Notes: a model not told the origin generated them from the sequence alone. A DNA stretch of 64,000 nucleotides from an uncultured Selenomonadaceae bacterium (GCA_937902665.1 CALELM010000046.1:3740-67739); one strand, 5' to 3'; counted from the first letter of the stretch, positions 19,540 through 61,508 are shown. A program made the numbers and translations.

Positions 19540-19644
19540 TTGAAATATGATATACTAGTGTACGTCTTATTTAGTGTTGTTGTGTTCGATGCATTCTGCC
19601 TGCATTGCAGAGTGCCGTTGTTGTGATTTGGAGGTCTTGCTTTG

Positions 19645-21108: not shown

Positions 21109-21144
21109 TGATAATTACAAAGGTGAGAAAATTTTTCGTCTAGT

Positions 21145-30534: not shown

Positions 30535-30545
30535 TGGAGGACACT

Positions 30546-40747: not shown

Positions 40748-40780
40748 AAACCCCTCTCCTTTGGGAGAGGGGTTTTTCTT
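40748..40780 (+). terminator. Intrinsic terminator after fliC
   Basis: AAACCCCTCTCC-TTTG-GGAGAGGGGTTT stem followed by TTTTCTT. Confidence 0.8.
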
Positions 40781-43800: not shown

Positions 43801-44773
43801 AAGCGACAGGGAGCAGGCAGTCTCCCTCTTGGAACAGGCAATCAATCTTTTTGAGAATTCAGCTTCCAGTGGGGAGGCAAGCCAGTTTGCCGATTTTGCA
43901 GATGAGGTATTTGCGGCATTGGCGGAAGTATGCCTGCCTGACCAGAAAGCATGGGAGCTTGCTAAAAAGGCACTGCACTGGAATCCAAGAAATGAGAATG
44001 CCTTGGATGTGATCTGTACCTGCAAGGAAGGGACATCGGATGGGGAACTATTGGAGCTTCTTCAGGAAATGCTGGGAAGAGACGAAAAACAAGTGAGATA
44101 CTTGGCAAGGTTTGCAGAAAGCTATGGAAGGATTGGGCTTTTGGAAGAGGCGGAGCGAGTGTTGCGTGAGGAATTCCAGCAGGATGCCTGCCTGACGGAA
44201 ACCTATCAGAGATGGAAGGAAAACGGAGAGGCTGCTTTAGGGGAATGCTTTACGTTTGCTGCAGAAAATATCAAGAAGCTGCCGCCTGTCATGGTGTGCT
44301 TGGAGCAGGAAAAAACGATGCCTGCGAGGAAGCTCTTAAAAGAAGCAGAGAAGCAGCTGCCGCCTTCGATGCAGGTGCTTTGGAGGTGCTACAGGGAAGG
44401 TGAGGTGCCGGATTCCTTCAACAGGCAGGATGGATTTGATTTTTTCATGGAGGCTTTTCTGGACTGGGGAACAGAGGAACAGCTGGAGCGGTTCCTGTCA
44501 CTGGCCGGTGCTTTGGAGGAGCAGGACGTTTGGGAGCTTGGAACAGCTCTCTTTGTGCGCAGGCGGTGGCAGGGCGTGATTGCCCTGCAGTCCATGTTCC
44601 CTGCGGATTCTCCGTTGGCAAATGAAGAATTTTGGTATCGGCTCGGCGTATGCTTTTATGAGCTTGGCGAGGAGGAAACGGCACAGGAGTGCATGGAAAA
44701 GGCGCTTTCCATGTGCGAGGATCATGCAGGAGCAATTTCCTATATGGCATGGATGAGAGGTGAGAGAGCATGA
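40808..44773 (+). CDS. Tri-modular GT2-TPR glycosyltransferase (three tandem GT2 catalytic domains, each followed by TPR-like helical repeats)
   Basis: Three reiterations of the I(S/T)ACY..KNE...EIIVVDTGS.D.TVE.A...G..V....W..DF...RN.AL.HA.G.W...LDADE block start near 40808, 41930 and 42950. Each is followed by an (I)(R/H)HTGYS..L...KA.RNL segment. Confidence 0.85.
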   Translation: MKITACYITKNEEENLPSSLESIREVADEIIVVDTGSVDRTVEIAQSYGAAVYRHPWQDDFSEPRNVALEHASGEWILFLDADESFLHVEHLREAMERMMEEKPSVEVWLVPSFHVDKRNLERVQSISYVTKLFRNRKDIRYHGRIHENIRKDGGELELGYASEALAIRHTGYSASLSKEKALRNLRILEQEIERYGKLPGYDYYLADCYYSLERYEEALSCAKSQAMGDVRMIGHESHAHHLALECMRKLKTPLDEQLAWVEQAKEEYPLLPDYYAERGMLLSSMGRLEEAEKEFLEALLRYEGKEYPPCQGSIFTEQVAARASVRLGEIASRLGKREEAKQYFAIAGRYDALDGEVARKRKECLGVERRADGIRISACYMVKNEADNLKRSIESIREEVDEIIVVDTGSTDGTVEMAQSYGAEVYFLPWADDFSAPRNEALSHATGDWIIFLDADEYFTEETKGNLRRVVASEKKGNLLLVPAEQYDSTTGRRQIVIYSPRILRCQEGLHYVGRIHEEIRACGRIVLPVCQLAPADLKLIHTGYSSSLTQKKAERNLKILLQELEDTDDEERRNRLYMYLAETYAGLDKNELAKYYARKDIALGRQPIVYASRSYRILLHCLAQEKDAGKERLRVSEKATEDFPEVPDFHAELAQCLADDLQYEKAVREAEKALSSVKDYCWIEPMEMDEEALRLLTHRKEVWERIQERASHIKVSACLIVKDGGEDFKLWNKNADAYAFEKIVVDTGSTDGTAELAAACGCKVYPMEWHGDFAAARNEALFHATGDWAAVLDADEEFIEPEKVRPYLARMELSYGKADAVMVPIIHIDTDDGNREIKRAPYTRLLRMGRGLHYQGRVHERLVKQVGEVCLFAEEEKLAIRHTGYSSGRILGKLQRNLELLQREIAEHGKKPQHDRYLADCYYGMGDYAKALEHAQMALGGAVSLGAQSDLCRMLLSCMKELETPKEEQIAVARQAVENYPDLPDFYGLLGLLLLESDREQAVSLLEQAINLFENSASSGEASQFADFADEVFAALAEVCLPDQKAWELAKKALHWNPRNENALDVICTCKEGTSDGELLELLQEMLGRDEKQVRYLARFAESYGRIGLLEEAERVLREEFQQDACLTETYQRWKENGEAALGECFTFAAENIKKLPPVMVCLEQEKTMPARKLLKEAEKQLPPSMQVLWRCYREGEVPDSFNRQDGFDFFMEAFLDWGTEEQLERFLSLAGALEEQDVWELGTALFVRRRWQGVIALQSMFPADSPLANEEFWYRLGVCFYELGEEETAQECMEKALSMCEDHAGAISYMAWMRGERA

Positions 44774-46242
44774 AGATTTCGGCAGTAACGATTGCAAGGA
44801 ATGAGGCAGAAAATCTTCCGCAATGGCTAAAGAGCGTAAAGCAATATGCCGATGAAATTATTGTCGTGGATACCGGTTCAGAGGATGCTACGGTGGAGAT
44901 TGCGAGAGAAGGCGGCGCAAGGGTGGAGTTTTTTGCATGGTGCAATGATTTTGCGGCGGCAAAGAATTTTGGCATTGAGCAGGCAAGCGGAGACTGGATT
45001 GCCTTCTTGGATGCGGATGAGTATTTTGATGATACGGATGCGCCAAAGGTGCGTTCCTTGCTGTCGACATACCACAACCAGCCGAGGGTGGTTGCGATTA
45101 CTTTGAAGCTTGTCAATATTGACAAGGACACGGGAAGGAACATGGGGACCTCCTTTCCCTGCACGAGACTGTTTCGGAACGTGCCGTGGATTCGTTACGT
45201 CGGTTCGATTCATGAGAACCTGAGAAACATAACTCCTGAGAAGGAGGCAGAAATGAAGCTCGTTTCGTGGCTTCGGATCTACCATACGGGATATTCCGCC
45301 TCGGTCATCAAGCTAAAATCAAAACGGAATTTGGACATGATTTTGGACAGGCAGAAAAGGATAGGTTTCCAGCCCTTGGACGATTATCATCTTATGGACA
45401 GCTATTATTCCCTTGCTGATTATGAGAAGGCAATCTATCATGCCAAGCGGGCGGCCGCAGATCGCTATCAGCCGCTTGGCACGGAGCAGCGTATTTATAT
45501 GGTGTGGCTGCAATGCATGATGCTGATAAACGCACCAGCAGACGAATTTGAGGAGATCTTGAGGGAGGCAAGGGAAAAATTTCCGCAGGCAGCCGCCTAT
45601 TGGTTCTTGGCAGGTTCTGCGAAGTGGAAAAGCAAGGATTATCTGGGTGCAGAGCGTGAATTCATGGAAGGGTTGCTGCTCTATGAGCGCAATGGGTGCG
45701 AGGACGATTCGGCAGAGCGGCTTTTGCCCATGACTTATGAGTATTTGGGAGAGATTTGCTATATGCAGCATCGCTTTGAGGATGCGAAGGCATTTTTGAT
45801 GGAGGGCTTGCGCTGGAAGAAGCAAAGCTCCCACATGCTATGGATGTTGCTGGGACTTTGGCAGGGCGATGCAGAGGTGGAGATAATCCAGCGGCTGAAC
45901 AAGCTTTATGACAGGACGCAGGATGCCGAGTTCCTTGTGCAGGTGCTGAGTCGGACAACACTTTATCAAGCGACCTTGTATTATGACCGCTTGGCGGGCA
46001 ATGTTCTCGGAGACGTTGGGCGATATCTGCGCTCTGGGCATGCAAATGCCGCTGTCGCAGGTCTTGTCACGGAATTGGAGCGTTCTTATGTGGCAGGACA
46101 TTCGCTGGCAGGAATTCTTCAGGGGCAAACGGCATCGCTCATGGAGTATCTTTTGCCGCCGGTTTATCGGCAGGAGGGAGAAGCTTCTTCTGCGCGCATG
46201 CGGAAGCGTTTGGAACGGATGAGAAAATATTGGATGGATTAG
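44770..46242 (+). CDS. Single-module GT2-TPR glycosyltransferase
   Basis: MKISAVTIARNEAENLPQWLKSVKQYADEIIVVDTGSEDATVEIA...GDWIAFLDADEYF...YHTGYSASV is the same module as in the 1321-aa ORF. The start overlaps the upstream stop (ATGA). Confidence 0.85.
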   Translation: MKISAVTIARNEAENLPQWLKSVKQYADEIIVVDTGSEDATVEIAREGGARVEFFAWCNDFAAAKNFGIEQASGDWIAFLDADEYFDDTDAPKVRSLLSTYHNQPRVVAITLKLVNIDKDTGRNMGTSFPCTRLFRNVPWIRYVGSIHENLRNITPEKEAEMKLVSWLRIYHTGYSASVIKLKSKRNLDMILDRQKRIGFQPLDDYHLMDSYYSLADYEKAIYHAKRAAADRYQPLGTEQRIYMVWLQCMMLINAPADEFEEILREAREKFPQAAAYWFLAGSAKWKSKDYLGAEREFMEGLLLYERNGCEDDSAERLLPMTYEYLGEICYMQHRFEDAKAFLMEGLRWKKQSSHMLWMLLGLWQGDAEVEIIQRLNKLYDRTQDAEFLVQVLSRTTLYQATLYYDRLAGNVLGDVGRYLRSGHANAAVAGLVTELERSYVAGHSLAGILQGQTASLMEYLLPPVYRQEGEASSARMRKRLERMRKYWMD

Positions 46243-46257
46243 GACGGTTGGAGCGGT

Positions 46258-49200
46258 ATGGAGCTACGGGACAGGATTTATCAGGCATTGGATGCAAGGC
46301 AGTTTGCCTCGGCACGGGAGGCGATTGCGGAACTGAAAGCAGAAGCACCTGCGGAGGCAGCGGGGCTTTTGGTGGCACTGGAGATTGAGGACGGCTGTTT
46401 GGATGAGGCGGCTGTTTCCTTGGAGGAGTTGCGTCAGCTGTCGCCGCAGGATATTTATACGAGGTTCTTGGAGGCAAGGCTTGCTTTTTCCCTTCATGAG
46501 TACCAAAAGGCAAGGCACATTTTGGAAGAGTTGCTGGCAGGTGATATGCCCGCCATATACTTGGAAAAGGTGCTGAACCTTTACGGTCAGTGCTGCAGGC
46601 TCTTCGGGGATTGCAGGGGGGCAGCAGAGAGCTATCGCTTGGCATCCGAGGTCGTTCCGTCACGGGAGCTGAAGGCACTGGAATACAGTGATTATCTGTT
46701 TAACCTGCACTATCTTCCGCAATCGCTTTGGGAGCAGAAACGGGAAGCCATCGGTTTTGGCAGGCTTTTTTCGGATGTCCCATGGTTTTTGCAAGGGTTT
46801 CCCGTGCGGGAGAAAAAACTTCGGATTGGGTATCTTTCGGGCGATTTTCGGAATCATGTGGTGCTTCGGTTTGTCTATGCCTTTTTTTTGCAGGTGGATA
46901 AGGAGCGGTTTGAGGTCTATGCTTATGCGAACCATTTGGAGGATGCATACAGCGAGCATCTAAAAACTCTGGTGGATGGCTGGAGAAATATCTATGGCAT
47001 TTCGGATGAGGAAGCGGCACGACTGATTTACGAGGACGAGATTGATATCCTTGTCGATTTTTCAGGGCATACGAAGGGAAACCGCCTGCCTGTTCTTGCG
47101 AGAAAGCCTGCGCCCGTGCAGATATCAGGGGTTGGTTATTTTGCTTCGACTGGGCTTCCTTCGATGGATTATTTTTTGAGCGATGCTTTTTTGGCAGAGG
47201 GAAATGCGCAGGATGGGTTTGCAGAGGAGCTTCTGGTCTTGCCGCAGAGCCATTTTTGCTATACTCCCATGCAGGAGGAAAACCTTCCGTGCATGGCACC
47301 GTTCGAGAAAAATGGATATGTTACCTTTGGAAGCTTTAATAATTTTGCGAAGGTCAATGATGAGGTTCTGCTGGTGTGGAGCAAGTTGCTTCGGGAGATG
47401 CCGACGGCAAGGCTCCTTCTCAAGGCGGATGCCTTTGCTTTTGAGGATACGAAAGCTGCGGCGTTGGAGAGATTGGTGCAGGCAGGGCTGGATATGCGTC
47501 GGGTAGAATGCCGTGCATGGTCTGAGGAATATCTTGCTGAGTACGGGGATATGGATATTGCATTGGATCCATGGCCGTATCCAGGGGGCGGAACGACCTG
47601 CGATGCGCTCTATATGGGTGTTCCCGTGGTGACGATGACGGGAGCAAGCCAAGGGGAACGCTTTGGGGCGAGCCTTTTGCAGAATCTCGGGCTTGCAGAG
47701 CTTGTAGCGAAAGATACGGCAGAGTATGCAAGTATTGCACTGGCACTGGCAGAGGATCGGGAGGCACTGTCGATGCTTCGCAAGAACCTTCGAGACATGA
47801 TGCAAAATTCGCCGTTGATGGATGTTTCGGGGTATCAGGAGAGCTTGGCAGCTGCGTATCAAATGGTGTGGCATCATTATTGCGATACGCAGGAGGAACT
47901 TACCTATGCAGAGCAGAGGATCTTGCTCTCCCGTATCGAGAAATGGCAGGAGCAGGGCGATCGGAGGCAGGCTGTCTCTGGAATGTCAAGGATCTTGGCA
48001 GGCTCCCAAAATCTGAGCCTTTTGTTTCGGCTGGCGGAGATCGCTATAGATGGCAAGGAAATTTCTATCGTGGAGGAAACTGCAAGGCAGATGGAGCAGT
48101 GCGGTCCAAGGCAGGGGGCAACGCTTCTGGTGCAGGCATATTTATGTTCCATGAAGCATGAAGCGGAGAAGGCACTGCTGTTTTCTGAAAGGGCAAGAAA
48201 TGCCGGCACGCTGGATAATGTGCAGATGGGAATGGCATGGCATTTGACGGCAAGCCTGCAAAAAGAGCAGGGAAAGAGAGCCCTTGCGGCACATTCCTAT
48301 TTGGAATCGAGCCGCTGGCAGGCAGCAAAGGAAAATGCTTTGGCAGAATACAGCAATTATCTTCTGAACCTGCATTACGGCGGTGAACGGGAGATATTCA
48401 GAACTGCGGCAGAGGGATATGGGATCTTGCTTGCAGATGTGAAGCGGTATTCTCACGACATGGCACGGCATAGGCATGCGAGACTTCGCATAGGATATAT
48501 TTCTCCTGATTTTTGCCGTCATGTGGCGGCATGCTTTGCAGGCGTGTTTTTTGCATCGGCAGATTCGCAGGTGTTTTCGGTCTATGCTTATTCGCTCTCC
48601 ATGGAGACGGATGCTGTGACGGAGGAGTTCCGTTCCCGTGCAGAGCATTTTATCGACCTTTCCGGCATGGATGCAGAGAAAGCGGCAAGGCGCATTTACG
48701 AGGATGAGATTGATATTTTGGTGGATCTTTCCGGACACACAGGAGGAAATGCGCTTCCCATTTTGGCAAGAAAGCCTGCTCCCGTGCAGGTTTCCGGCAT
48801 TGGTTATTTTGCGACTACGGGACTTTCAGCGGTGGATTATTTTCTGTCAGATGTTTCTTTGGCAGAGGCTGGCGCGCAGAGGGATTTTGTGGAACGGTTG
48901 CTGGTCCTTCCGCAGAGCCATTGGTGCTACCGCCCTGTGGCTGGGATGGAGCGTCCTGCAGGACCTGCACCGTTTCGGAAAAATGGATACATTACCTTTG
49001 GCAGCTTGAGCCATTGGGACAAGATTACGGATGAAATGCTCCTTGCGTGGGCAGAGATCTTGAACCGTGTGCAGGGGGCAAGGCTTTTCTTGAAATGCGG
49101 GGTATATTCCAATGAGGAACGGCTGCCAGAGGTTAAGAGACGCTTGCAGGAGGCAGGGATTCCACTGAAAGCCGTGACCTTGGAGGGGCGGACGGAGGAA

Positions 49201-51240
49201 TATCTTTCTGCTTATGACCGCATAGACATTGCACTCGATACTTGGCCGTATCTCGGCGGAGGAACGACCTGCGATGCCCTGTATATGGGAGTTCCCGTGG
49301 TTGCACGAAGGGATGTCACGCATCATGGCCGCTTTGCCTGCAGTATGCTGAAGCAGGCAGGGCTGGCGGAGCTTTGCGCAGATACGCTGGAAGGATATGT
49401 TCGTGAAGCCGTTCTTTTGGCAGGGAATCGGGAAAAGCTTGCAAGACTGCACCAGACGCTCCGGCGTACGTTGCGGCAGACGGCACTCATGGATGGCGAA
49501 CGGTATATGGCAGGCTTGGAAGATGCCTATCGGACGATTTGGCGCAGTTATTGCGAGGAAAACGGTTCGCCCTTGGATGAGGGGCGCTTGCAGAAGGAGT
49601 TTCTTGCAGCAAGGCAGGAAGGACATGCAGAAAAGGAGCAGCGCAGCTCTTTTTGGCTGACGAACCTTCCTGAAAGGCAGTTGGAGGCGGAACGGGTTTG
49701 TGCTTTTTCCTACTATAGAAGGAAACTGTACCGCAGGGCGTATGGTCTAGCTTCCCGTTGCGTGAGGCTGGATGCTGGCGATGAGGCTATGCTTTACGTT
49801 GCGATGGATTCCTTGGACAAGCTTGGCGAGCTTTCCAAGGTGCTGGAGGGGTGCGATACCTATTTCAGGACGCATGGTTCTCCTTATTCGGAATATGGGA
49901 AGAAACTTTTGCTCCTTCGTGCGTTTGTGGCATCGAAATTGGGCAGGGAATCGGCAGCGCAGTATTACAGGGAAGTTTATGAGAATGATCCTTCGGATAC
50001 GGATGCTTATGGATCGTGGCTCTTGGCGCACAATGGCTTTCCTGTGGACGAAGGAAGGTTTTTTGAGCTGTCCAAGGGGTTTGGCAGGCTGTTTGAGGGA
50101 ATCCAGCCCTATACGCATGAGGGGCATCCTGTGCATGAGAAGCTTCGTATCGGATATATTTCTCCGGATTTTCGGATTCATGTTATGTTTCACTTTTATA
50201 TCGCCATGTTTTTGGCGTATGATGCAGAAAAATTTGAAATCTATGGCTATCATTTGGGCGGGAAGACGGATGAGATTACGAAGCGGCTTGCAGGTCTGGC
50301 GAAGGGATGGCGCATGGTGCATGGCTGTTCCCCCAAGGAAATCGCTCAAATGATTCGGGACGATGAAATTGATATCCTGTTTGATTTGGCAGGGCATACG
50401 ATGGAGGGGGGGCTTCCTGTGCTTGCCTGCAAGCCTGCGCCTGTGCAGATTTCGGGACTTGGCTATATGGCAACAACGGGACTTCCTGCGGTCGATTATT
50501 TTCTGACGGATTCGTATGTAGATCCAGTGGGAATGACGGAAAGATACTTCACGGAGCGGTTGCTACGCCTAACGAGCCAGTTCTGCTACGCTGCTCCCTT
50601 TGGGACTGCGCTGGAAGCCTCGCAGGGAGCGCCCTGCAGGCAGCGTGGGTGGGTACTCTTTGGCGTGTTCAATGCTTATCGGAAGTATCGGGACGAAATG
50701 CTTTTGCTGTGGAAGAAGATACTGGAACGTGTTGCAGGCTCGAAAATCTTGCTGAAGTCGCAGGTGCTGTTCAGTCCTGCCATGCAGGAGGAAGCCTTTG
50801 AACGATTTGCTTCGCTTGGCTTTGATATGGATCGCGTGATTTTTGAGCCGGCAACGACCGATTACATGCAGCGTTATCTGGATGTGGATATTTCCTTGGA
50901 TACTTATCCCTATCCAGGGGGAGGAACGACCTGTGATTCCCTGTACATGGGCGTGCCAGTCATAGCCAAGTACGGGACGAGGCACAGCAGCCGCTTTACC
51001 TACAGCATTTTGGCAAATGTCGGTTTGGGGAGTCTTGCCGTGCAGACAGATGAGGAATATGTGGAAAGAGCCGTGCTGTTGGCAGAGGATAAGGAACTTT
51101 TGGATGCCTTGCATCGAAAGCTTCGCAGAATGATGGAGAAATCGAGCGTGATGGATACGGATGCCTATATGAGAGAGCTGGAGGAAGCATATCAGCGGAT
51201 TTGGAAGGAATATCAGGAAGGGACAGGGAGTCGGGTATGA
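46258..51240 (+). CDS. Tri-modular TPR-GT41 (O-GlcNAc-transferase/SPINDLY-like) glycosyltransferase
   Basis: Three ~550-aa reiterations. Each has helical repeats, then LRIGY(L/I)S.DF..HV, PAPVQ(I/V)SG.GY.A(S/T)TGL...DYFL(S/T)D, and YPGGGTTCD(A/S)LYMGVPV. The LRIGY blocks lie near 46818, 48484 and 50143. Confidence 0.85.
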   Translation: MELRDRIYQALDARQFASAREAIAELKAEAPAEAAGLLVALEIEDGCLDEAAVSLEELRQLSPQDIYTRFLEARLAFSLHEYQKARHILEELLAGDMPAIYLEKVLNLYGQCCRLFGDCRGAAESYRLASEVVPSRELKALEYSDYLFNLHYLPQSLWEQKREAIGFGRLFSDVPWFLQGFPVREKKLRIGYLSGDFRNHVVLRFVYAFFLQVDKERFEVYAYANHLEDAYSEHLKTLVDGWRNIYGISDEEAARLIYEDEIDILVDFSGHTKGNRLPVLARKPAPVQISGVGYFASTGLPSMDYFLSDAFLAEGNAQDGFAEELLVLPQSHFCYTPMQEENLPCMAPFEKNGYVTFGSFNNFAKVNDEVLLVWSKLLREMPTARLLLKADAFAFEDTKAAALERLVQAGLDMRRVECRAWSEEYLAEYGDMDIALDPWPYPGGGTTCDALYMGVPVVTMTGASQGERFGASLLQNLGLAELVAKDTAEYASIALALAEDREALSMLRKNLRDMMQNSPLMDVSGYQESLAAAYQMVWHHYCDTQEELTYAEQRILLSRIEKWQEQGDRRQAVSGMSRILAGSQNLSLLFRLAEIAIDGKEISIVEETARQMEQCGPRQGATLLVQAYLCSMKHEAEKALLFSERARNAGTLDNVQMGMAWHLTASLQKEQGKRALAAHSYLESSRWQAAKENALAEYSNYLLNLHYGGEREIFRTAAEGYGILLADVKRYSHDMARHRHARLRIGYISPDFCRHVAACFAGVFFASADSQVFSVYAYSLSMETDAVTEEFRSRAEHFIDLSGMDAEKAARRIYEDEIDILVDLSGHTGGNALPILARKPAPVQVSGIGYFATTGLSAVDYFLSDVSLAEAGAQRDFVERLLVLPQSHWCYRPVAGMERPAGPAPFRKNGYITFGSLSHWDKITDEMLLAWAEILNRVQGARLFLKCGVYSNEERLPEVKRRLQEAGIPLKAVTLEGRTEEYLSAYDRIDIALDTWPYLGGGTTCDALYMGVPVVARRDVTHHGRFACSMLKQAGLAELCADTLEGYVREAVLLAGNREKLARLHQTLRRTLRQTALMDGERYMAGLEDAYRTIWRSYCEENGSPLDEGRLQKEFLAARQEGHAEKEQRSSFWLTNLPERQLEAERVCAFSYYRRKLYRRAYGLASRCVRLDAGDEAMLYVAMDSLDKLGELSKVLEGCDTYFRTHGSPYSEYGKKLLLLRAFVASKLGRESAAQYYREVYENDPSDTDAYGSWLLAHNGFPVDEGRFFELSKGFGRLFEGIQPYTHEGHPVHEKLRIGYISPDFRIHVMFHFYIAMFLAYDAEKFEIYGYHLGGKTDEITKRLAGLAKGWRMVHGCSPKEIAQMIRDDEIDILFDLAGHTMEGGLPVLACKPAPVQISGLGYMATTGLPAVDYFLTDSYVDPVGMTERYFTERLLRLTSQFCYAAPFGTALEASQGAPCRQRGWVLFGVFNAYRKYRDEMLLLWKKILERVAGSKILLKSQVLFSPAMQEEAFERFASLGFDMDRVIFEPATTDYMQRYLDVDISLDTYPYPGGGTTCDSLYMGVPVIAKYGTRHSSRFTYSILANVGLGSLAVQTDEEYVERAVLLAEDKELLDALHRKLRRMMEKSSVMDTDAYMRELEEAYQRIWKEYQEGTGSRV

Positions 51241-53693
51241 GAAAATTGAGAATCGGCTATCTTTCGGATGGCTTTTGCCAAGGAGAGCAAAAGGATTTTT
51301 TGGCAGTGTATTTTACGGCAAAGGACAAATACTGCTTTGAGGTTTACGGGTATCAGGCAGGAAACGCAGATGCAGTTACAAAGCTGTTTGAGGAATCCGC
51401 AGATGGCTGGAACAACCTGCAGGGGAAATCCTCTTTGCAGGCGGTAAAGGAGATTCGGAAGGATAAGCTGGATTTGTTGGTGATTCTGGGAAATCCGTCC
51501 TGCACGGAGCTTATAGCGGAGCTTGCGGGGAAGAATGTGGCGGGATATATCCTGCAGGAGAAGTTTGACAGGTTCTGCTATACGCCCTTTGCCAAGGTGA
51601 GGAATTACGCCGTATATGCTCCTCTTTTGGACAGGGGCGATTTGACGATTGACTACTTGGACGGCAGGACGATGGAGGAGATCCCTTATCAGGAACTGGA
51701 TATAGGGCTTTATCGGCATACCCCCTCGCTGGCTGAGCTGTGCCATGCCATGGATAACGGGCTGCCTGTTGTGGTTTGCGATGAGGAAAAAAACGAGGGT
51801 ATCCGCTACATGATGGAGGAATTGGGGCTTGCCGGATGCTATGCGGTTACGGAGGTGGATTTTGCAAGGGCAGTGCTGAACCTGTCGGAACAACGGGAGG
51901 AAATTTGCAGGCTGCACCGAGAACTTCATGCAAGGCTTCATGCGTCAAAGCTTATGGATATCGGTCACTATATCATAGAGCAGGAAAGGAAATATTTCCA
52001 GATTGCTTATGGGGAGAAAAAGGAAAATGTGAAGAAGTTGCTTTCTGAGCTGGAGAAGCTGCAGGAAAAAAAGAATTGGAAGGAATATGTCCGCCTGCAC
52101 GGGAAATTGGTGGGAATGGAGGCTGTTCCAACGGAAAAGCTCCTGATTGGGGCATGGGCATATAATTTCTTGCAGGTTCCCATGCGAACCCTCCACTGGG
52201 CAAGGAAGGCAGAGGAGCATCATGCAGAAAAGCTTGCTACACAGCTGTATCTGCAGGCAAAGGCATTATGGGAAGAGGGACACTGGGCAGAGCTTGGCAA
52301 GGTCTGCCAAAGGATCTTGGATCTGGAAGAAGCCGGCAAGGAATTGCTCTCGGAAATCCGATTTGACGCATGGCGTTATATGGCATTTGTTTTTATTCGT
52401 TTGGGTGATGCAAGAACAACGATGGCATACCGAAAAGTCAGCGAGCTTTCGTCCAATGAAGTGGATCGGCGCGGTTTTTTCAGTGCCAGCTTGTTGTCCT
52501 ATAATTTTCAGGAGGTCTCCTTGCAGAAGCTGTATGAGGAACATGTTTCCTATAACCAGTTTTTTACGGGAATTGAGCCTTATACGAAGTGGCAGCACCA
52601 GAGCGGGGAAAAGCTGCGGATTGGCTATATTTCCCCTGATTTCCGCAATCATGTAATGAGTACCTTTTGCTGGCCCTTTTTGGCGAGCTTCAATCGTGAG
52701 AAATTTGAGGTTTATGCCTACAACATCAAGGGAAAGGATGATTATGCCAAAATTTTTTCTTCGCTCGTGACTTGCTGGCGTGATGTGAAGGGTAAGACGT
52801 GTGAGGAAATAGCACATCAGATTCATGAGGATGGCATTGACATTTTAGTAGATCTGGCAGGCCATACCTCAGATTCCGGGCTTCCTGCACTTGCATGGAA
52901 GCCTGCCCCGATTCAGGTATCGGGGCTTGGCTACATGACGACAACGGGACTTTCTGCCGTGGATTACTTTTTTACCGATAGCTTTGTGGATCCTGTGGGA
53001 CTGAATGAGGCATATTTTTCAGAACGCTTTTTGCGGCTCAAGAGCCAGTTCTGCTATAATGCGAACCTGAATCTCGCACCTTCGGAAGGAACGCCGGCAA
53101 GGGATCGGGGATGGATTCTCTTTGGTGTTTTCAATCAATATGTGAAGATTACGGATGAAATGGCTCTCGCATGGAAGGAGATTATGGAGCGTGTGCCAAG
53201 ATCGAGACTGCTCATCAAGAATGGAGCCTTTGCGGATGAGAGGGCGGTTCTGCTTGCCTATCGCAGACTGGAGGCACTGGGGATGGATATGAACCGCATT
53301 TATTTGGAGCCACCTTCCAAGGATTACATGGAGCGGTATTTGGAAGTGGATATTGCACTGGATACCTATCCGTATCCGGGGGGAGGAACGACCTGTGATG
53401 CGCTCTATATGGGAGTACCTGTGATTTCCCGTTACAGCAATCGCCACAGTGCACGGTTTACCTATGGCATGTTGTCGGTTGTCGGCTTGGAGGATTTGGC
53501 ATCGGATACAAGAGAAGGATATGTGGAAAAGGCTGTGGAGCTGGCGCATGATATGGAGCTTTTGGATGGGTTGCACAGGAATCTCAGAACGATGATGAAG
53601 GCTTCCAGACTGATGGATCCTGTGAAGTACATCGAAGATGTGGAGGAAAATTACTGCAGGATTTGGAAGGAATATCAGGAGGGAAAAGCGTGA
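51237..53693 (+). CDS. TPR-GT41-like glycosyltransferase with an N-terminal degenerate GT41-like pseudo-module
   Basis: The N-terminal ~260 aa keep LRIGYLSDGF and the overall outline but lack the PAPVQ and GGGTT blocks. The C-terminal module (LRIGYISPDFRNHV near 52611) is intact. The start overlaps the upstream stop (ATGA). Confidence 0.8.
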   Translation: MRKLRIGYLSDGFCQGEQKDFLAVYFTAKDKYCFEVYGYQAGNADAVTKLFEESADGWNNLQGKSSLQAVKEIRKDKLDLLVILGNPSCTELIAELAGKNVAGYILQEKFDRFCYTPFAKVRNYAVYAPLLDRGDLTIDYLDGRTMEEIPYQELDIGLYRHTPSLAELCHAMDNGLPVVVCDEEKNEGIRYMMEELGLAGCYAVTEVDFARAVLNLSEQREEICRLHRELHARLHASKLMDIGHYIIEQERKYFQIAYGEKKENVKKLLSELEKLQEKKNWKEYVRLHGKLVGMEAVPTEKLLIGAWAYNFLQVPMRTLHWARKAEEHHAEKLATQLYLQAKALWEEGHWAELGKVCQRILDLEEAGKELLSEIRFDAWRYMAFVFIRLGDARTTMAYRKVSELSSNEVDRRGFFSASLLSYNFQEVSLQKLYEEHVSYNQFFTGIEPYTKWQHQSGEKLRIGYISPDFRNHVMSTFCWPFLASFNREKFEVYAYNIKGKDDYAKIFSSLVTCWRDVKGKTCEEIAHQIHEDGIDILVDLAGHTSDSGLPALAWKPAPIQVSGLGYMTTTGLSAVDYFFTDSFVDPVGLNEAYFSERFLRLKSQFCYNANLNLAPSEGTPARDRGWILFGVFNQYVKITDEMALAWKEIMERVPRSRLLIKNGAFADERAVLLAYRRLEALGMDMNRIYLEPPSKDYMERYLEVDIALDTYPYPGGGTTCDALYMGVPVISRYSNRHSARFTYGMLSVVGLEDLASDTREGYVEKAVELAHDMELLDGLHRNLRTMMKASRLMDPVKYIEDVEENYCRIWKEYQEGKA

Positions 53694-55150
53694 TGGGGGA
53701 TTTTGAGCGTTCCTACGACAAGATGAAAAAGGCGTATGACAAGAAAAAATATGAGAAAGCACTGCAACTTTTGTCGAGAATGTGGGAGGAGAATGGGATT
53801 CCTGCGCAAAAGGAATGGATGTGCCATAATGCGGCAGGGCTGTCGTACTTTTTTCTGGGAGATATGAAGCGTTCCCTGCCGCACCTGAAGGCGGCGTGGG
53901 AAAATCCGGGAGATGCGGATCCTGCCACCTTGCGAAGAATCTACAGCAATTATTTGATGTACCTGCACTACCTTCCTGCGGTGACGGATGAGGAATTGGC
54001 GAAGGCACATTTTCACTATGCGGACTTCTTTTCGGATGTGACGAGATACATGCACAGGAAAAGGGAAAAGGAGAAGCTGAGGATAGGCTATATTTCTCCT
54101 GATATCGTGGATCATGTCGTGCTGAATTTTTCTATTCAGCTGTTTGCTTGCTATGATCGCAAACGCTATGAGGTGATTCTCTACAGCACAGGGAAGCGGA
54201 CGAATGAGGTGACGGACTGGGTCGCTTCCATGGTGAATGGCTTTCGTGATTTGTCGGGACTCCCTGCGGAGGATGTGGCAAAGAGGATCTACGAGGACGA
54301 GGTGGATATTCTCGTGGATTTGTCGGGACATTGCGAGGGTGGTTTTACGCTGGAGGCAGCTGCTTACAAGCCTGCGCCTGTGCAGATTTGCGGGATTGGG
54401 TATTTTGATACGACAGGACTTTCCGACTTTGATTACTTTTTGTCAGATGTTTATTGCGATCCTGCGGAAAATGACAGGCTCTTTTCCGAGAAGCTGCTTC
54501 GTTTGCCGCACAGTCACCTTTGCTTTACGCCATCGGAGCGTTTTCGGGATTTTGAGCGGAGCTATCAGGTTCACGATCCCATTGTGTTTGGCAGTTTCAA
54601 TAATTTTGCAAAAATTACGGATGAAATGCTTTTGGCATGGAAGGAAATTCTTGGGAGGGTTTCAGGGAGCAGGCTTCTTCTGAAGAACGTCATTCCCAGC
54701 AAAGGACCAATGGAGAGAATGAAAAAGCGAGCTATTTCTTTAGGCTTTCAAGAGTGCCAGCTGGATCTCAGGCCAGCGACACCGGATTACTTGAAGGATT
54801 ATATGGATGTGGATATCGTGTTGGATACCCACCCTTACCCGGGGGGCGGAACGACCTGTGAGGCTCTTTATATGGGAGTTCCTGTCGTTAACCTGCGCGG
54901 GACGAGGCACGGCGCAAGATTTGGGTATTCCCTGCTAAAAAATATGGGGCTTGAGGAGCTTTCGGCGTCCTCAATTGCGGAATATATTGATCTGGCCGTG
55001 GGACTTGCAGAAGATAAGGAGACTCTTGAGGCATTGCATGCGAGCCTTCGGGAAATGATGAAAAAATCTCCCGTGATGAATGCAAGGCAGTATGCTTGCG
55101 AGGTGGAGCAGGCGTATGAAATGGCATGGCAGGAATGGATGAAAAGCTAG
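53693..55150 (+). CDS. Single-module TPR-GT41-like glycosyltransferase
   Basis: LRIGYISPDIVDHV, PAPVQICGIGYFDTTGLSDFDYFLSD, HPYPGGGTTCEALYMGVPVV. The start overlaps the upstream stop (TGATG). Confidence 0.85.
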   Translation: MGDFERSYDKMKKAYDKKKYEKALQLLSRMWEENGIPAQKEWMCHNAAGLSYFFLGDMKRSLPHLKAAWENPGDADPATLRRIYSNYLMYLHYLPAVTDEELAKAHFHYADFFSDVTRYMHRKREKEKLRIGYISPDIVDHVVLNFSIQLFACYDRKRYEVILYSTGKRTNEVTDWVASMVNGFRDLSGLPAEDVAKRIYEDEVDILVDLSGHCEGGFTLEAAAYKPAPVQICGIGYFDTTGLSDFDYFLSDVYCDPAENDRLFSEKLLRLPHSHLCFTPSERFRDFERSYQVHDPIVFGSFNNFAKITDEMLLAWKEILGRVSGSRLLLKNVIPSKGPMERMKKRAISLGFQECQLDLRPATPDYLKDYMDVDIVLDTHPYPGGGTTCEALYMGVPVVNLRGTRHGARFGYSLLKNMGLEELSASSIAEYIDLAVGLAEDKETLEALHASLREMMKKSPVMNARQYACEVEQAYEMAWQEWMKS

Positions 55151-55257
55151 CAGGAATTTTTCCGTTGCTGTCGAATGTAAAAGTTGAACGTAAATGTGAA
55201 AAGTATTGATTGAAAAGTTATCGTATGATAATTGTCGCTTGAATGGAGGCTTTTGAA

Positions 55258-56163
55258 ATGGAAATTGAGATTACAGATGATATGTATCCGGGATATACCT
55301 TTGCAGAGAAGAAGGTATTGGCAGTGATGGACAGGCAGCTGTATACAGAGGCATTGAACTATATGCCGGATGTTTTGCAGCAGGAGGTGATGAAGCCGGA
55401 ATTCTTTTATCGTACTGCGTATTGTTATTTTATGCAGGGAGATTATGGAAGAGCGTCTAAATGGATAGATGATGCCCTTGGTGCTATGCCGGGAGATATC
55501 CAAACGTTGCTTTTGCTTGCAAAGATCTGCACGCTGTGCAATCGGAGTGAGGATGGTCTTGCTGTGCTTGATATGGTGGTAAAGAATGCAAAGGAACAGC
55601 TCAGTGGTACGCAGCAGGAAGAAATCAGGGATTGCTCTCTTGCGTTCCTGCGCAGGGACAAGGAGGCTGCAAGAAAGAATTATCCATCACTTGCAGAGTT
55701 CGTCCTGTCAGCGGAGGATGGTGCTGACGGAAAGAGTGCCAAGGCAATCCTGACGGCATTGAAGCAAAAGCTTGCTGCATCGAAGGAGCGGGAGGGCGAA
55801 GTCCCTGCGGAAAAGGTTGCTCCTGCGGAGAAAAAAGAAGCATGCACAGAGGAAGAAGCATGCCAACCAGAAGAAAAGAATGGTTGCGCTGCACAGGCAA
55901 AGGCAGATCAGATTCTTTCCATGGATCTTCCAGTAAAGGATAAGATTCGTCTTTTGAATCAGTTTGCGGGTGCTTTTTATTTCCAAGGCGATGCAAGGAG
56001 CGCAAAGGTACTGCTGACGGCTTCCTTGAAGCTGGATGCAGGGGATGGCACGTTGCGAAACATGGCGCTTGTTCTGGCAGAGCTTGGCGACAAGGAAAAG
56101 GCAATGCAGTTTGCGGCACAGATGAAGGAAACCAATTTCATGCTGTTGAAGTCGCTTCGTTGA
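55258..56163 (+). CDS. TPR-repeat protein with an acidic central linker
   Basis: Helical repeat pattern (FYRTAYCYFMQGDYGRASKWIDDAL...) and no catalytic motif seen. ATG at 55258 follows GGAGG. Confidence 0.55.
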   Translation: MEIEITDDMYPGYTFAEKKVLAVMDRQLYTEALNYMPDVLQQEVMKPEFFYRTAYCYFMQGDYGRASKWIDDALGAMPGDIQTLLLLAKICTLCNRSEDGLAVLDMVVKNAKEQLSGTQQEEIRDCSLAFLRRDKEAARKNYPSLAEFVLSAEDGADGKSAKAILTALKQKLAASKEREGEVPAEKVAPAEKKEACTEEEACQPEEKNGCAAQAKADQILSMDLPVKDKIRLLNQFAGAFYFQGDARSAKVLLTASLKLDAGDGTLRNMALVLAELGDKEKAMQFAAQMKETNFMLLKSLR

Positions 56164-56191
56164 TTCATTTTTTTATGGGAATGAAAAGCTT

Positions 56192-57466
56192 GTGCAGATA
56201 GTACAGAGTGATTGGGAGGTGAATGGGTTGGCAGGCTACATTACGGAACTGGCAGATTTTTTGCATGAAAATAAAAAAGAAATTTTACGGGCAGATGGCT
56301 TGAGGAAAAAAGAAATTCTGGAGGATTTGAGGAACTGCTTGGAGGCATTGCCTATAGAGTCCCTGCGATTGCTGCAGGCAGGAAATCCGGAAAGGGCATA
56401 TACCATGCTTAATGACTGGTATGATATATGTGAATCCTATCTGGGGAATGTTTCGTTTATTTATGGAAAATTGATTATTCCGGTGACTGTGGCACTTTCA
56501 CGGTATGAGAGTGCGGAACGGTATTGCAGGGCATGGATTGAGCATAGGTTAAGAGACGATGAAAATATATGGTTTTACTTGGGAAACGCTTATGCCGGAT
56601 GGGGCAAGAGACAAGAGGCGGTTTCAGCATATCAGGAAGCTTTGAAGCTGAAGGAAAACTTTAGGGAAGCGAGGGAAAACTTGCATGCTGTGCAGGAAAA
56701 TATGAAAGCAAGGCACTTTTTTCCGCAAGAGAACATACTTCGCTTCCAGCCAGAGGATTATCGCTCGATTCCAATTTTTATCAACTCAAGAGATCGAGTG
56801 GAATGTCTCCGCAAGCTGGTGGACTGGCTCTTGGAGGCAAGGTATGCGAATATTATTTTGCTGGACAATGCCTCGACCTATCCGCCTTTGCTTCGCTACT
56901 ATGATGAGATTTGCGCTCTGCCGCAGGTCAGGTGCATTCGTTTCCATGAGAATTTAGGTCATACTGCGCTATGGGATTCCGGCATTTTGGAGCAGATGCA
57001 GATTCATACGCCATACGTTTATACGGATTCAGATGTTTTGCCCGTGGAGGATTGCCCAAAGGAAATTCTTAGGGATATGGTTGGCATATTGAAACAGCAT
57101 CCGTATTTAGACAAGGTAGGACTGGGACTGAGAATAGACGATATTACTTACTATGATGCAGGGCGCAAGCAGGCATGGGAAAAGCAATTCTATCGCTTTC
57201 CGATGGAGGATGGGCTGGTATTCGCTCCTGTAGATACCACGTTTGCGCTTTACCAAAACATGCGTCACTATTCTTTATATGTTGCAGCACGAACAACAGG
57301 CAGGAGGATGGCAAGGCATTTGCCGTGGTATTATGACTACGATCATCTTCCTGAAGATGAAGCATATTACATGAAGCATGCAAATTCTTCGTCTACCTTG
57401 TCAAAGGAGGCAGGAAACAAATCGGAAGATCCGCTTAAAAATTACAGGTGGGTAGGATTCTTTTGA
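56192..57466 (+). CDS. TPR plus GT-A-like (DxD) putative glycosyltransferase, paralog A
   Basis: IPIFINSRDRVECLRKLVDWLLEARYANIILLDNASTYPPLLRYYDE...YVYTDSDVLP...ARHLPWYYDY. The fold assignment is inferred. The start codon is uncertain (tracked GTG). Confidence 0.5.
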   Translation: MQIVQSDWEVNGLAGYITELADFLHENKKEILRADGLRKKEILEDLRNCLEALPIESLRLLQAGNPERAYTMLNDWYDICESYLGNVSFIYGKLIIPVTVALSRYESAERYCRAWIEHRLRDDENIWFYLGNAYAGWGKRQEAVSAYQEALKLKENFREARENLHAVQENMKARHFFPQENILRFQPEDYRSIPIFINSRDRVECLRKLVDWLLEARYANIILLDNASTYPPLLRYYDEICALPQVRCIRFHENLGHTALWDSGILEQMQIHTPYVYTDSDVLPVEDCPKEILRDMVGILKQHPYLDKVGLGLRIDDITYYDAGRKQAWEKQFYRFPMEDGLVFAPVDTTFALYQNMRHYSLYVAARTTGRRMARHLPWYYDYDHLPEDEAYYMKHANSSSTLSKEAGNKSEDPLKNYRWVGFF

Positions 57467-57574
57467 AGAAATACCGAAAAAGTGGAATACAGAAAATGTG
57501 TAGGAACGAAGTAAGACGATTGTTCGTGGAATGTGAGTGACGGGACTAGTGAAATGGCATGAGGGGAAAAGTGC

Positions 57575-58825: not shown

Positions 58826-58923
58826 GAGATGGTGAGTGGGGTGCTTAACATATCTTTTGTGACAAGTGAAAATTGCGTTGTTCGGGCGTGGTGGGCGGAA
58901 AGCAATACAGAGGAGGGAGAAGG

Positions 58924-61489: not shown

Positions 61490-61508
61490 AGCTGTGGGGA
61501 GTGAGAGA

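Follow-up and report, generated by a model that had tools for sequence, protein, structure and literature searches.

Next to the flagellin gene of an uncultured Selenomonadaceae bacterium lies an array of GT41-family glycosyltransferase modules, five of them intact and one a conserved degenerate copy, with three fused in a single protein of 1660 aa. We interpret this region as one half, the GT41 part, of a flagellin glycosylation island; the bacterium is a diderm Firmicute. The array was analyzed within a continuous stretch of 64 kb, referred to here as the window, from the first letter of which all positions are counted (Table 1). The nearest named relative of the source bacterium was Mitsuokella sp. 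oral taxon 131, and the source itself is described as rumen or oral.

Table 1. Features of the flagellin glycosylation island and its GT41 array
Feature	Position in window (nt)	Strand	Evidence and remarks
Flagellin, 442 aa, presumed acceptor	39390..40718	+	Pfam Flagellin_N 7.9e-36, Flagellin_C 5.5e-23
Terminator-like hairpin, then a T-run, just 3' of the flagellin gene	40756..40772	+	Consensus scan only
1321-aa protein, three fused GT2 + TPR modules (GmaR/SunS-like)	40808..44773	+	Pfam Glycos_transf_2 6e-66 in 3 stretches, plus TPR matches
490-aa single GT2 + TPR module	44770..46242	+	Pfam GT2 2.6e-21; ATG overlaps preceding stop (ATGA)
Module 1 of 1660-aa protein (aa 1-548)	46258..47901	+	10-helix arm, then GT41 GT-B core; HMM core aa 187-552
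Module 2 of 1660-aa protein (aa 549-1105)	47902..49572	+	Helical arm and GT41 core
Module 3 of 1660-aa protein (aa 1106-1660 and stop codon)	49573..51240	+	Helical arm and GT41 core
Degenerate (pseudo-)GT41 domain, aa 1-262 of 818-aa protein	51237..52022	+	ATG overlaps stop of 1660-aa ORF (ATGA)
11-helix arm and intact GT41 core of 818-aa protein	52023..53693	+	Pfam 3.2e-45
485-aa single module, shorter helical arm	53693..55150	+	Pfam 1.3e-42; ATG overlaps preceding stop by 1 nt (TGATG)
Downstream part of island	55243..62735	+	Pfam; content differs between strains
TPR proteins downstream of array	55243-56163, 56192-57466, 58873-60075	+	Pfam
Weak FtsJ-like methyltransferase match	57575-58825	+	Pfam
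GT2 gene downstream of array	60068-61489	+	Pfam
GT8 gene downstream of array	61494-62735	+	Pfam

The 1660-aa open reading frame (46258-51240) comprises three units, each a helical arm followed by a GT41 core, at spacings of 555 and 553 aa. An initial annotation of this DNA had noticed a three-unit periodicity of about 1.66 kb, and the anchors are indeed 1665 and 1659 nt apart, with LRIGY at aa 188, 743, and 1296, PAPVQ at aa 284, 840, and 1393, and GGGTTC at aa 443, 1000, and 1554. The 818-aa frame (51237-53693) begins with the degenerate domain and continues into an intact module, and the 485-aa frame holds a single module. The LRIGY blocks of these two frames, previously placed at 52611 and 54074, were found at nt 52614 and 54077, and motif mapping returned the same count of five intact modules and one degenerate module. 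The open reading frames lie where they had been described, but the 818- and 485-aa frames more likely start at ATG 51237 and ATG 53693 than at the TTG codons at 51201 and 53663; each ATG overlaps the preceding stop codon, and both agree with the genes called in relatives (818 and 485 aa). The intact modules share 35 to 48% protein identity with one another and the degenerate copy 25 to 31% with the rest. Module 3 and the intact 818-aa-protein module were 67% identical in DNA over 891 nt, near the roughly 70% estimated earlier.

The genes lie on one strand in the order FlgN-FlgK-FlgL...FlaG-FliD-FliS-FliT-flagellin-GT2x3-GT2-GT41 array, so that the flagellin-adjacent setting proposed in the initial annotation holds both in the window, where the flagellin gene is upstream, and in relatives with the same order. 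A gap of 89 nt separates the flagellin gene from the first glycosyltransferase gene, and the glycosyltransferase genes overlap one another (-4, -4, and -1 nt). The central domain of the flagellin is rich in serine and threonine (S+T of 35 to 37.5% in aa 141-220 vs 22% overall). The GT2 cores of the 1321-aa protein, whose gene belongs to the island but lies 5' of the segment first annotated, occupy aa 6-199, 381-569, and 721-908, and this protein matched the NCBIfam SunS family at 6.6e-61, which is under the family cut-off; the best solved relative of the 490-aa module was Listeria GmaR (22ao_A; E = 3.4e-27), with SunS next. Downstream cassettes were present or absent differently in the window and in the loci L080 (98% identical) and L001 (92.6% identical). 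The flagellin-glycosyltransferase order recurred in L001, L080, L020, L018, L006-8, L027, L058, and L073, and the same synteny, with varying fusion state, was found in loci of Selenomonas, Mitsuokella, Megamonas, and Anaerovibrio. This conserved linkage of glycosyltransferase genes to flagellin and late flagellar genes is that of a flagellin island.

Membership in GT41 was found by profile, solved-structure, and fold searches alike. Pfam PF13844 (Glyco_transf_41) matched the 1660-, 818-, and 485-aa proteins at E = 2.2e-125, 3.2e-45, and 1.3e-42, well above chance. The scores of 419, 155, and 146 bits compare with a cut-off of 25, and the six stretches matched in the 1660-aa protein correspond to two lobes in each of three modules. 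In a sequence search of solved structures, the 485-aa module matched SPINDLY (SPY) at 1.1e-69 over ~415 residues, TtOGT at 2.8e-54, and human OGT at ~2e-38; HMW1C/NGT reached only E ~1e-6 with a match confined to the C-lobe, and the NCBIfam NGTferase match to the three-module protein (1.4e-29) fell far under its family cut-off. AlphaFold2 (AF2) models of the intact module of the 818-aa protein (pLDDT 86.6, pTM 0.83) and of Module 1 (pLDDT 90.2) placed 10 to 11 antiparallel paired helices before each GT-B core. A Foldseek search with the former found SPY at 9e-35 and TtOGT at a TM score of 0.82 (normalized to TtOGT; rmsd 4.7 Å over 531 columns), and all of the top 50 matches were GT41 structures (SPY, TtOGT, XcOGT, and human and fly OGT; probability 1.00). 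A TPR-first architecture had been proposed, and a helical arm does precede the core; however, Pfam TPR profiles on the arms all scored under their gathering scores (best TPR_19, 23.8 vs 25 bits, in Module 1) and found nothing in the arms of Module 2 or the 818-aa protein, so that only their predicted structure marks the arms as TPR-like. The cores, of ~365 aa, do not contain the intervening domain of metazoan OGT; human OGT aligned with them in two stretches and SPY and TtOGT in one. No membrane segments were predicted (maximum Kyte-Doolittle score 1.34).

All five intact modules keep both catalytic residues, His and Lys, as well as the GGGTT phosphate loop. Across 13 orthologues, these three features do not vary at any of the three positions: His200, Lys365, and G443-T447 of Module 1 are conserved, and His755, Lys922, and G1000-T1003 of Module 2 and His1308 and Lys1476 of Module 3 are invariant; Module 2 carries a variant Lys motif (FGSLSHWDK) and YLGGGTT. 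SPY H495, K665, and Y744 align with the His, Lys, and Tyr of the array modules, and we take the human OGT counterparts of the catalytic pair to be H498 and K842. Among 290 homologous cores, counted per position with cores lacking a call treated as pattern misses, the His was present in 86 to 92 of 96, the Lys in 77 to 90 of 96, and a Tyr or Trp at the gate in 85 to 92 of 96. The gate position (SPY Y744, human OGT Cys917) is Tyr in all five intact modules and Tyr or Trp in nearly all of the 290 cores, and the small residue expected of a strict OGT was thus not found. How large the donor pocket is depends on the residue at this position (PMC9715652). GlcNAc is therefore not presumed to be the donor, and the Tyr (or Trp) points to a donor more compact than UDP-GlcNAc, for example a hexose or one of the 6-deoxyhexoses rhamnose and fucose, under a single-residue rule drawn from few enzymes, among them TtOGT and XcOGT, whose activity is not confirmed (PMC9715652). 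The 64-kb window contained no nucleotide-sugar biosynthesis genes, and so the donor cannot be read from the gene context. The initial annotation had called the modules OGT-like; they do belong to GT41, but since they resemble SPINDLY and TtOGT more than metazoan OGT and have the SPY-type Tyr gate, the name O-GlcNAc transferase should not be assumed.

The degenerate domain keeps KLRIGYLS but has no catalytic His, PAPVQ..TTGL segment, Lys motif, or GGGTT, and on its own it misses the Pfam threshold (E = 0.079, 11.6 bits). It is nevertheless conserved in orthologues (37 to 54% identity) and under purifying selection (dN/dS 0.10), and the AF2 model retains the Rossmann fold of the N-lobe. This catalytically dead domain is probably a scaffold or an acceptor-binding partner of the module fused to it.

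The three-module layout is common to 96 homologues of 1600 to 1730 aa (full-length coverage, 40 to 54% identity), in which the best match of Module 1 was position 1 in 83, that of Module 2 position 2 in 72, and that of Module 3 position 3 in 92. A module phylogeny and dN/dS had been suggested in the initial annotation, and a neighbor-joining tree recovered position clades holding 81, 78, and all 96 of the 96 sequences for positions 1, 2, and 3. The intact module of the 818-aa protein grouped inside the position-3 clade and is a paralogue of that lineage. Because modules group by position across the 96 homologues, the fusion is old, and this grouping supports the earlier view that the copies are diverged rather than recently amplified. 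Most segments were under purifying selection: dN/dS was 0.14 for the Module 1 core, 0.11 for Module 2, and 0.08 for Module 3, and it ranged from 0.08 to 0.25 in all segments but two, the Module 3 arm (0.40) and the arm of the 818-aa protein, for which a dS of only 0.02 gave no value. These results bear on whether the 1660-aa frame could be an assembly or sequencing artefact joining three separate genes. Some relatives do have the same modules separate or otherwise fused: S. flueggei has a two-module frame, a degenerate-plus-one-module frame, and a single-module frame, and L040 and L043 have three single-module frames. However, the frame is intact in the loci L001, L080, and L081, and every member of a six-member cluster of assemblies from different projects is 1660 aa long; the junctions were modelled as continuous helices (pLDDT ~90), and dN/dS well under 1 throughout, together with the 96 full-length homologues, leaves the artefact effectively refuted, with a probability close to nil.

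We consider it probable that the GT41 modules, together with the GT2 and GT8 enzymes, decorate flagellin, each module performing a distinct step. The five modules would be soluble and cytoplasmic, each a short TPR-like arm that docks the acceptor and a SPINDLY-type GT-B domain that transfers sugar from a nucleotide-sugar donor. They would cooperate with the four GmaR-like GT2-TPR modules upstream and with the GT2 and GT8 enzymes downstream to place heterogeneous O-glycans on the Ser/Thr-rich central domain of flagellin before export. That flagellin is the substrate of the GT41 modules is suggested by the gene neighborhood. A division of labor of this kind between arm and core is known from FlmG, whose TPR arm binds flagellin and whose GT-B domain transfers the sugar (PMC7591256). 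The flagellin of S. sputigena bears heavy O-glycosylation, documented by 22 glycopeptides and including glycans that contain rhamnose (PMC13339959; bioRxiv 10.1101/2024.05.20.594992), and that of S. ruminantium is also reported to be glycosylated. Because the paralogy among the modules is old and each has orthologues specific to its position, each most likely serves a different site, sugar, or linkage. The 1660-aa fusion and the overlapping stop and start codons may mainly enforce co-expression and proximity; since relatives split the same modules differently, fusion is not essential.

It is possible, though rather doubtful, that attachment of the first sugar, on flagellin Ser/Thr, falls to the GmaR-like GT2-TPR modules alone and that the GT41 modules only elongate or branch the glycan. 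GT2 enzymes of the GmaR, CD0240, and FgtA type are experimentally established flagellin initiators, the GT41 member HMW1C also makes hexose-hexose links (PMC9715652), and nine modules for one flagellin would suit oligosaccharide assembly, as would the heterogeneous multi-sugar glycans reported for S. sputigena. However, all characterized GT41 enzymes (OGT, SPY, and HMW1C/NGT) are primarily protein directed, every module retains a predicted TPR-like arm of its own for protein docking, and the flagellin islands of Enterobacteriaceae have either GT41 or GT2 but not both (PMC4875605), implying that GT41 can initiate by itself. We regard it as unlikely that the modules are redundant copies of the same chemistry, kept for dosage or site coverage, or that some intact modules are catalytically silent scaffolds. 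Only one alignment column was at least 85% conserved within each position yet different between positions, and the number of modules per locus ranges from 3 to 5 between species, as redundancy might allow. Redundant copies would be expected to homogenize or decay, whereas these paralogues, at their low mutual identity, have maintained positional orthologues in 96 homologues, each module is under purifying selection with a complete set of catalytic motifs, and the lone copy without catalysis dropped all of its motifs together.

Still less probable is a general cytoplasmic O-glycosylation or signaling system that lies beside flagellar genes by chance and does not have flagellin as its main substrate. 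SPY and OGT do act on many nucleocytoplasmic proteins, and Yersinia HmwC is reported to O-GlcNAcylate multiple proteins. Large GT41 arrays occur in Geobacteraceae, cyanobacteria, and Sedimentisphaerales without a nearby flagellin gene; in other phyla, the biggest such arrays (L010, L012, L015, and L025) had none in the flanks examined, and such arrays are thus not intrinsically flagellar. In Selenomonadaceae, however, the position directly 3' of flagellin and GmaR-like genes is conserved across many genera. The genes show operon-like packing and overlapping stop and start codons, and loci of Burkholderia, Trinickia, Desulfopila, Bryobacteraceae, and Planctomycetota also have flagellin adjoining a GT41 array. 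As an extension of our preferred reading, flagellin decoration in distinct steps, we would raise only as a long shot a co-linear assembly line in which the order of sugar addition to flagellin would be set by the three orthologous modules, in their conserved N-to-C arrangement, along with the single module and the pseudo-GT41-plus-module protein, with the acceptor passed from arm to arm and the dead domain serving as an acceptor holder or as a pairing partner that mimics the SPY/OGT homodimer. If true, NRPS/PKS co-linearity would have a counterpart among glycosyltransferases.

Among known systems, the closest enzyme is Arabidopsis SPINDLY (PDB 7y4i, 8dtf), a GT41 O-fucosyltransferase that was the top solved sequence relative and top fold match and shares the TPR-then-GT-B order, the missing metazoan intervening domain, the conserved H495 and K665, and the Y744 gate. 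SPINDLY has one catalytic domain and 11 TPRs, forms a homodimer, and uses GDP-fucose on nuclear and cytosolic regulators, whereas the array proteins belong to a bacterial flagellar setting, have short arms of ~5 hairpins, carry as many as three catalytic domains in one chain, and have Gly where SPY has T748. TtOGT (Thermobaculum terrenum, 5djs) and XcOGT (Xanthomonas, 2jlb/2vsn) combine a short TPR arm with a GT41 core and a Tyr gate, but they are single-module and not flagellar, and their physiological substrate and activity are unconfirmed. HMW1C/NGT N-glucosyltransferases are distant GT41 relatives that initiate on protein and extend hexose-hexose links, but they have an all-helical non-TPR N-domain and modify Asn in adhesins. 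FlmG (Caulobacter) and GmaR (Listeria) are soluble, act before export, and join a flagellin-binding TPR domain to a sugar-transferring domain. Each has one catalytic domain, FlmG of another GT-B family that transfers pseudaminic acid and GmaR of GT2 (GT-A fold); the GT2 neighbors of the array are true relatives of GmaR, the Listeria flagellin O-GlcNAc transferase. In enterobacterial flagellin islands, GT41/SPINDLY-domain (COG3914) enzymes lie beside flagellin genes, with inferred flagellin glycosylation (De Maayer & Cowan 2016, PMC4875605). Those islands have one to three glycosyltransferases, usually fused to methyltransferase domains, whereas the Selenomonadaceae island has four GT2 modules, five GT41 modules, and a pseudo-GT41 domain, with catalytic domains of the same family fused together.

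The initial annotation considered this not to be a described system. We found no paper on it, and the literature searched held no published genetic link between these enzymes and flagellin glycosylation. However, RefSeq routinely annotates the three-module protein as a "SPINDLY family protein" (e.g., in Mitsuokella sp. oral taxon 131 and Selenomonas ruminantium), GT41 enzymes in flagellin islands have been published (PMC4875605), and proteins with several GT41 modules are common, occurring in several phyla with as many as six cores. We regard the layout as a variant, so far undescribed in its architecture, of a known system; it is old, occurs widely, and already has database annotations.

Translation of the three successive open reading frames of the array recovered in all of them the motifs quoted in the initial annotation. 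The periodicity of about 1.66 kb that had been read in the 1660-aa protein was also confirmed, with LRIGY at amino acids 188, 743, and 1296 (periods of 555 and 553 aa, or 1665 and 1659 nt), PAPVQ at 284, 840, and 1393, and GGGTTC at 443, 1000, and 1554; in the two following frames, the LRIGY blocks lie at nt 52614 and 54077. The probable starts of the second and third genes are the ATG codons at 51237 and 53693, which overlap the preceding stop codons (ATGA and TGATG, respectively). Starting there, the proteins are 818 and 485 aa long, in agreement with the genes called in related assemblies. In an alignment of the six units, the five intact modules share 35 to 48% protein identity in pairwise comparisons, and the sixth, degenerate unit is 25 to 31% identical to the others. 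The two most similar units, module 3 of the 1660-aa protein and the intact one in the 818-aa protein, share 48% identity as protein and, over 891 nt of DNA, 67%, in keeping with the 70% or so that had been estimated by eye.

The assignment of these modules to family GT41 was borne out by profile, solved-structure, and fold searches. Pfam Glyco_transf_41 (PF13844; gathering score, 25 bits) matched the 1660-aa protein in six stretches (E = 2.2e-125) and the 818-aa and 485-aa proteins at 3.2e-45 and 1.3e-42. Among solved structures, the 485-aa module matched Arabidopsis SPINDLY (SPY) first, at 1.1e-69 in a single stretch of ~415 residues, then Thermobaculum TtOGT (2.8e-54), human OGT (about 2e-38), and Xanthomonas XcOGT (1.6e-32), with HMW1C/NGT as a distant match only. 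The human OGT match was broken into two stretches because the modules do not have the metazoan intervening domain. AlphaFold2 models of the 818-aa protein (pLDDT 86.6, pTM 0.83) and of modules 1 and 2 together (pLDDT 90.2, pTM 0.73) both predict that a two-lobe Rossmann GT-B core follows 10 to 11 antiparallel helices in each intact module. Foldseek returned GT41 structures exclusively, with SPY at 9e-35 and with TtOGT at a target-normalised TM score of 0.82 (rmsd of 4.7 Å over 531 columns, the TtOGT TPR arm included). In the models a helical arm precedes the core, as the TPR-first layout proposed initially would have it, but no arm reached threshold with the Pfam TPR profiles; by predicted structure the arms are TPR-like.

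SPY residues H495, K665, and Y744 align with a module His (D-F-x-x-H-V), Lys (F-N-x-x-x-K), and Tyr (P-Y-P-G-G-G-T-T), and SPY T748 aligns with a Gly. The His/Lys/Tyr set is present in all five intact modules, is invariant in 13 three-module orthologues, and was found in the majority of 290 homologous cores; 15 cores from the third (C-terminal) position of three-module proteins have Trp instead of Tyr. Module 2 has the Lys motif FGSLSHWDK, compared with FGSFNNFAK, and YLGGG in place of YPGGG. Judged from their sequences, these are SPY-type GT41 modules, and the array holds five complete SPY-type catalytic centers. In the SPY structure, a gate Tyr (Cys917 in human OGT) was argued to clash with GlcNAc and to select smaller sugars, and TtOGT, XcOGT, and HMW1C, which have Tyr or Phe at the gate, are not demonstrable O-GlcNAc transferases (PMC9715652). 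The modules have the SPY-type gate Tyr and are therefore not classed as O-GlcNAc transferases; the initial "OGT/SPINDLY-like" designation is retained in its SPY-type GT41 part, whereas the O-GlcNAc transferase label is not carried over. The donor sugar may be smaller than GlcNAc, with rhamnose an attractive candidate because the flagellin glycans of Selenomonas sputigena contain it (PMC13339959). Among position-specific residues, only one column (H332/H888 versus Q1441) met an 85% criterion, and no donor assignment is possible from it.

The three-module protein could have been an assembly artifact or the product of recent tandem amplification. The 1660-, 818-, and 485-aa genes occur in identical order in an independent assembly (GCA_045617105.1; 93% protein identity) and in two ENA metagenome assemblies (98% DNA identity), and all six members of the 90% cluster of the large protein are 1660 aa long. 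Three full cores within 1600 to 1730 aa were found in 96 of the best 120 database homologues; others have two cores, four cores, three GT41 cores together with a GT2, or a degenerate core between two intact ones. Some are already annotated as [quoted passage not shown] as in Selenomonas ruminantium, Selenomonas sp. GACV-9, and Mitsuokella sp. oral taxon 131. An artifactual fusion is ruled out by the equal length of the frame in six assemblies and by the 96 full-length homologues. Modules 1, 2, and 3 had their best BLAST matches at the same position of those homologues in 83, 72, and 92 of 96 cases, respectively. The module phylogeny and dN/dS estimates proposed at the outset returned positional clades and low ratios in the cores. 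In a neighbor-joining tree of 290 cores, all 96 position-3 cores fell in one clade, which also takes in the intact module of the 818-aa protein, and the position-1 and position-2 clades held 81 and 78. The modules are thus positional orthologues, indicating that the three-module fusion is older than the split of these lineages and that its positions have been kept separately. This positional orthology, with 35 to 48% protein and about 67% DNA identity, rules out recent amplification, and the earlier reading of the copies as diverged is upheld. Relative to the 93% relative, dN/dS was 0.08 to 0.14 in the catalytic cores and 0.17 to 0.40 in four of the five arms; the fifth, in the 818-aa protein, had too few substitutions (dS 0.02) for a ratio. 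Synonymous divergence from the relative's locus L001 was mosaic, at 0.24 to 0.52 in modules 1 and 2 and the 485-aa gene and 0.02 to 0.09 over module 3 and the 818-aa gene, suggesting recent recombination in a tract between about 49.6 and 53.7 kb.

The degenerate module keeps the N-terminal KLRIGYLS and the Rossmann strands that follow it. In place of the catalytic His it has another residue, deletions have removed the PAPVQ..TTGL segment and the Lys motif, and no GGGTT is left; the AlphaFold2 model shows a folded N-lobe and a reduced C-lobe. The degenerate-plus-intact layout recurs in homologues of 818 to 937 aa at 37 to 54% identity, with matching losses in 12 of 13, and also in Selenomonas flueggei and further loci. 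A decaying pseudogene remnant is ruled out by orthologues with like losses down to 37% identity and by a dN/dS of 0.10. The module is a conserved pseudo-enzyme domain and not debris.

The array was correctly described as flagellin adjacent, since it and the GT2 genes lie 3' of flagellin. Upstream are the flagellar rod and ring genes FlgF/G, FlgA, FlgH, and FlgI, the L- and P-rings fitting a diderm Negativicute, and then two FlgN genes, FlgK, FlgL, FlaG, FliD, and FliS- and FliT-sized frames. A terminator-like hairpin directly follows flagellin, whose central domain is 35 to 37% Ser/Thr, and gaps within the island core are -4, +15, -4, and -1 nt. The best solved relative of the GT2 modules is GmaR (E = 3.4e-27), the flagellin O-GlcNAc transferase of Listeria, with SunS next. 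No hydrophobic segment was found in any glycosyltransferase protein of the island. GC skew was positive in all 2-kb bins (0.11 to 0.30) and annotated genes are mostly on the plus strand; the entire window appears to lie on the leading strand of one replichore, which explains many long spurious antisense frames.

Coordinates of features in the window
Feature	Position	Strand	Description
Hexokinase	3569-4903		Eukaryote-type in a bacterial genome (Pfam Hexokinase_1 1e-52, Hexokinase_2 6e-46)
Region between ring genes and murA	19642-23313		AMIN-like plus NAGPA phosphodiester glycosidase protein; 722-aa protein with SpoIVB peptidase S55 match
FlgN-family paralogue	30531-31028		Chaperone, upstream of flgK
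FlgN-family paralogue	31088-31558		Chaperone, adjacent to the preceding
Flagellin	39390-40718
GT2+TPR genes	40808-46242		1321-aa protein (three modules), then 490-aa protein (one module)
GT41 ORF 1	46258-51240	+	1660 aa; modules 1 to 3
GT41 ORF 2	51201-53693	+	Degenerate domain plus intact module
GT41 ORF 3	53663-55150	+	One module
TPR gene	56192-57466		424 aa; faint GT2-like hit to NCBIfam MftF at aa 187-286 (E = 6e-4)
FtsJ-like gene	57575-58825		416 aa

The order of flagellin, four GT2 modules, and GT41 array recurs in loci assigned to Selenomonas, Mitsuokella, Megamonas, Anaerovibrio, and further Selenomonadaceae. The modules are distributed over successive frames as 3, degenerate plus 1, and 1 in the window and L001; 2, degenerate plus 1, and 1 in S. 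flueggei; 3 and 1 in Megamonas; and elsewhere 2, 1, and 1; 1, 1, and 1; or 1, degenerate plus 1, and 1. Fusion is therefore frequent and not obligatory. Many related loci share four GT2 modules, and in the window these mirror the "three fused plus one separate" pattern of the array. The S. sputigena ATCC 33150 locus (L032) is a different one, in which a short flagellin-like gene and a single GT41 gene sit beside recombinases, and was uninformative; a tblastn search of a GT2 module against plasmids added nothing. Located 3' of the array are genes for TPR proteins, one with a weak match to a methyltransferase, a GT2 gene, and a GT8 gene, and whole-gene cassettes here differ among close strains (window 56196-58856; L080 14962-17621; L001 21203-21206). 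The 98% identical locus L080 is without the 424-aa TPR gene and has an extra 366-aa GT2 gene, and L001 is without the FtsJ-like gene. By its sequence match, the 424-aa protein may be another degenerate TPR-glycosyltransferase module.

Searched against clusters at 50% identity, one module matched 36,365 at E ≤ 1e-3 and 17,064 at E ≤ 1e-30, and every one of the best 150 proteins had 2 to 6 matched stretches, in lengths up to 3855 aa. The fetched loci included a single 4891-aa frame with six cores in a Coleofasciculaceae cyanobacterium, frames of about 3750 aa with six cores in Geobacteraceae, about 15 cores across 13 adjacent frames on a Sedimentisphaerales contig, and three single-module genes adjoining flagellin in Burkholderia diffusa and Trinickia. 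Repetition of GT41 modules is thus nothing unusual among known sequences. No flagellin gene was found in the fetched flanks of the giant arrays (L010 2566-17238, L012 3073-14379, L015 9164-20413, and L025 1-22839). GT41 enzymes occur in enterobacterial flagellin glycosylation islands (PMC4875605), FlmG follows a TPR-plus-GT logic (PMC7591256), and Selenomonas flagellins are reported to be heavily glycosylated (PMC13339959; bioRxiv 10.1101/2024.05.20.594992). FgtA is a GT2 enzyme. Neither fused multi-GT41 proteins nor the Selenomonadaceae island turned up in the literature searched, outside which Rath et al. 2018 (PMC5880101) lies. To that extent the initial view of an undescribed system holds, but such proteins are neither rare nor unannotated in databases and its claim of novelty was overstated. 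The array is no new kind of system and consists of known parts in an unstudied multi-catalytic arrangement. The most fitting description is that of an architectural variant of the flagellin glycosylation island with GT41 and GT2 protein glycosyltransferases, a kind of system already known.

The proteins are soluble, are packed in operon-like fashion straight after flagellin, and have each module conserved separately over a long time. We consider flagellin glycosylation a fairly probable explanation of the array as a whole. We hypothesize that each helical arm, by analogy with the TPR domain of FlmG, binds flagellin in the cytoplasm, with or without glycans already on it, and that its core then attaches a sugar either to Ser/Thr or to a growing glycan. 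Site, sugar, or linkage may vary from module to module, fusion together with translational coupling could keep the modules stoichiometric and near each other, and the pseudo-domain might act as a scaffold or present the acceptor to its fused partner. In a variant that seems to us possible but rather doubtful, the GT41 modules would only elongate glycans begun by the GmaR-like modules.

Although GT41 enzymes abound in bacteria, a substrate or donor is known for almost none of them, and activity is unconfirmed for both of the bacterial "OGTs" with solved structures. The locus described here couples GT41 modules with an obvious, abundant, and easily purified candidate substrate, flagellin, which in the host family is known to bear complex O-glycans. 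The five diverged active sites form a comparison set for donor and acceptor specificity, a pseudo-enzyme domain comes with them, and the fusion versus fission between genera amounts to a set of natural experiments. The island is a good experimental entry point to the largely uncharacterized bacterial GT41 family. If the array does act in flagellin glycosylation, it would provide the missing genetic basis of Selenomonas flagellin glycan heterogeneity and a tractable system for the choice of sugar and site by SPY-type enzymes.
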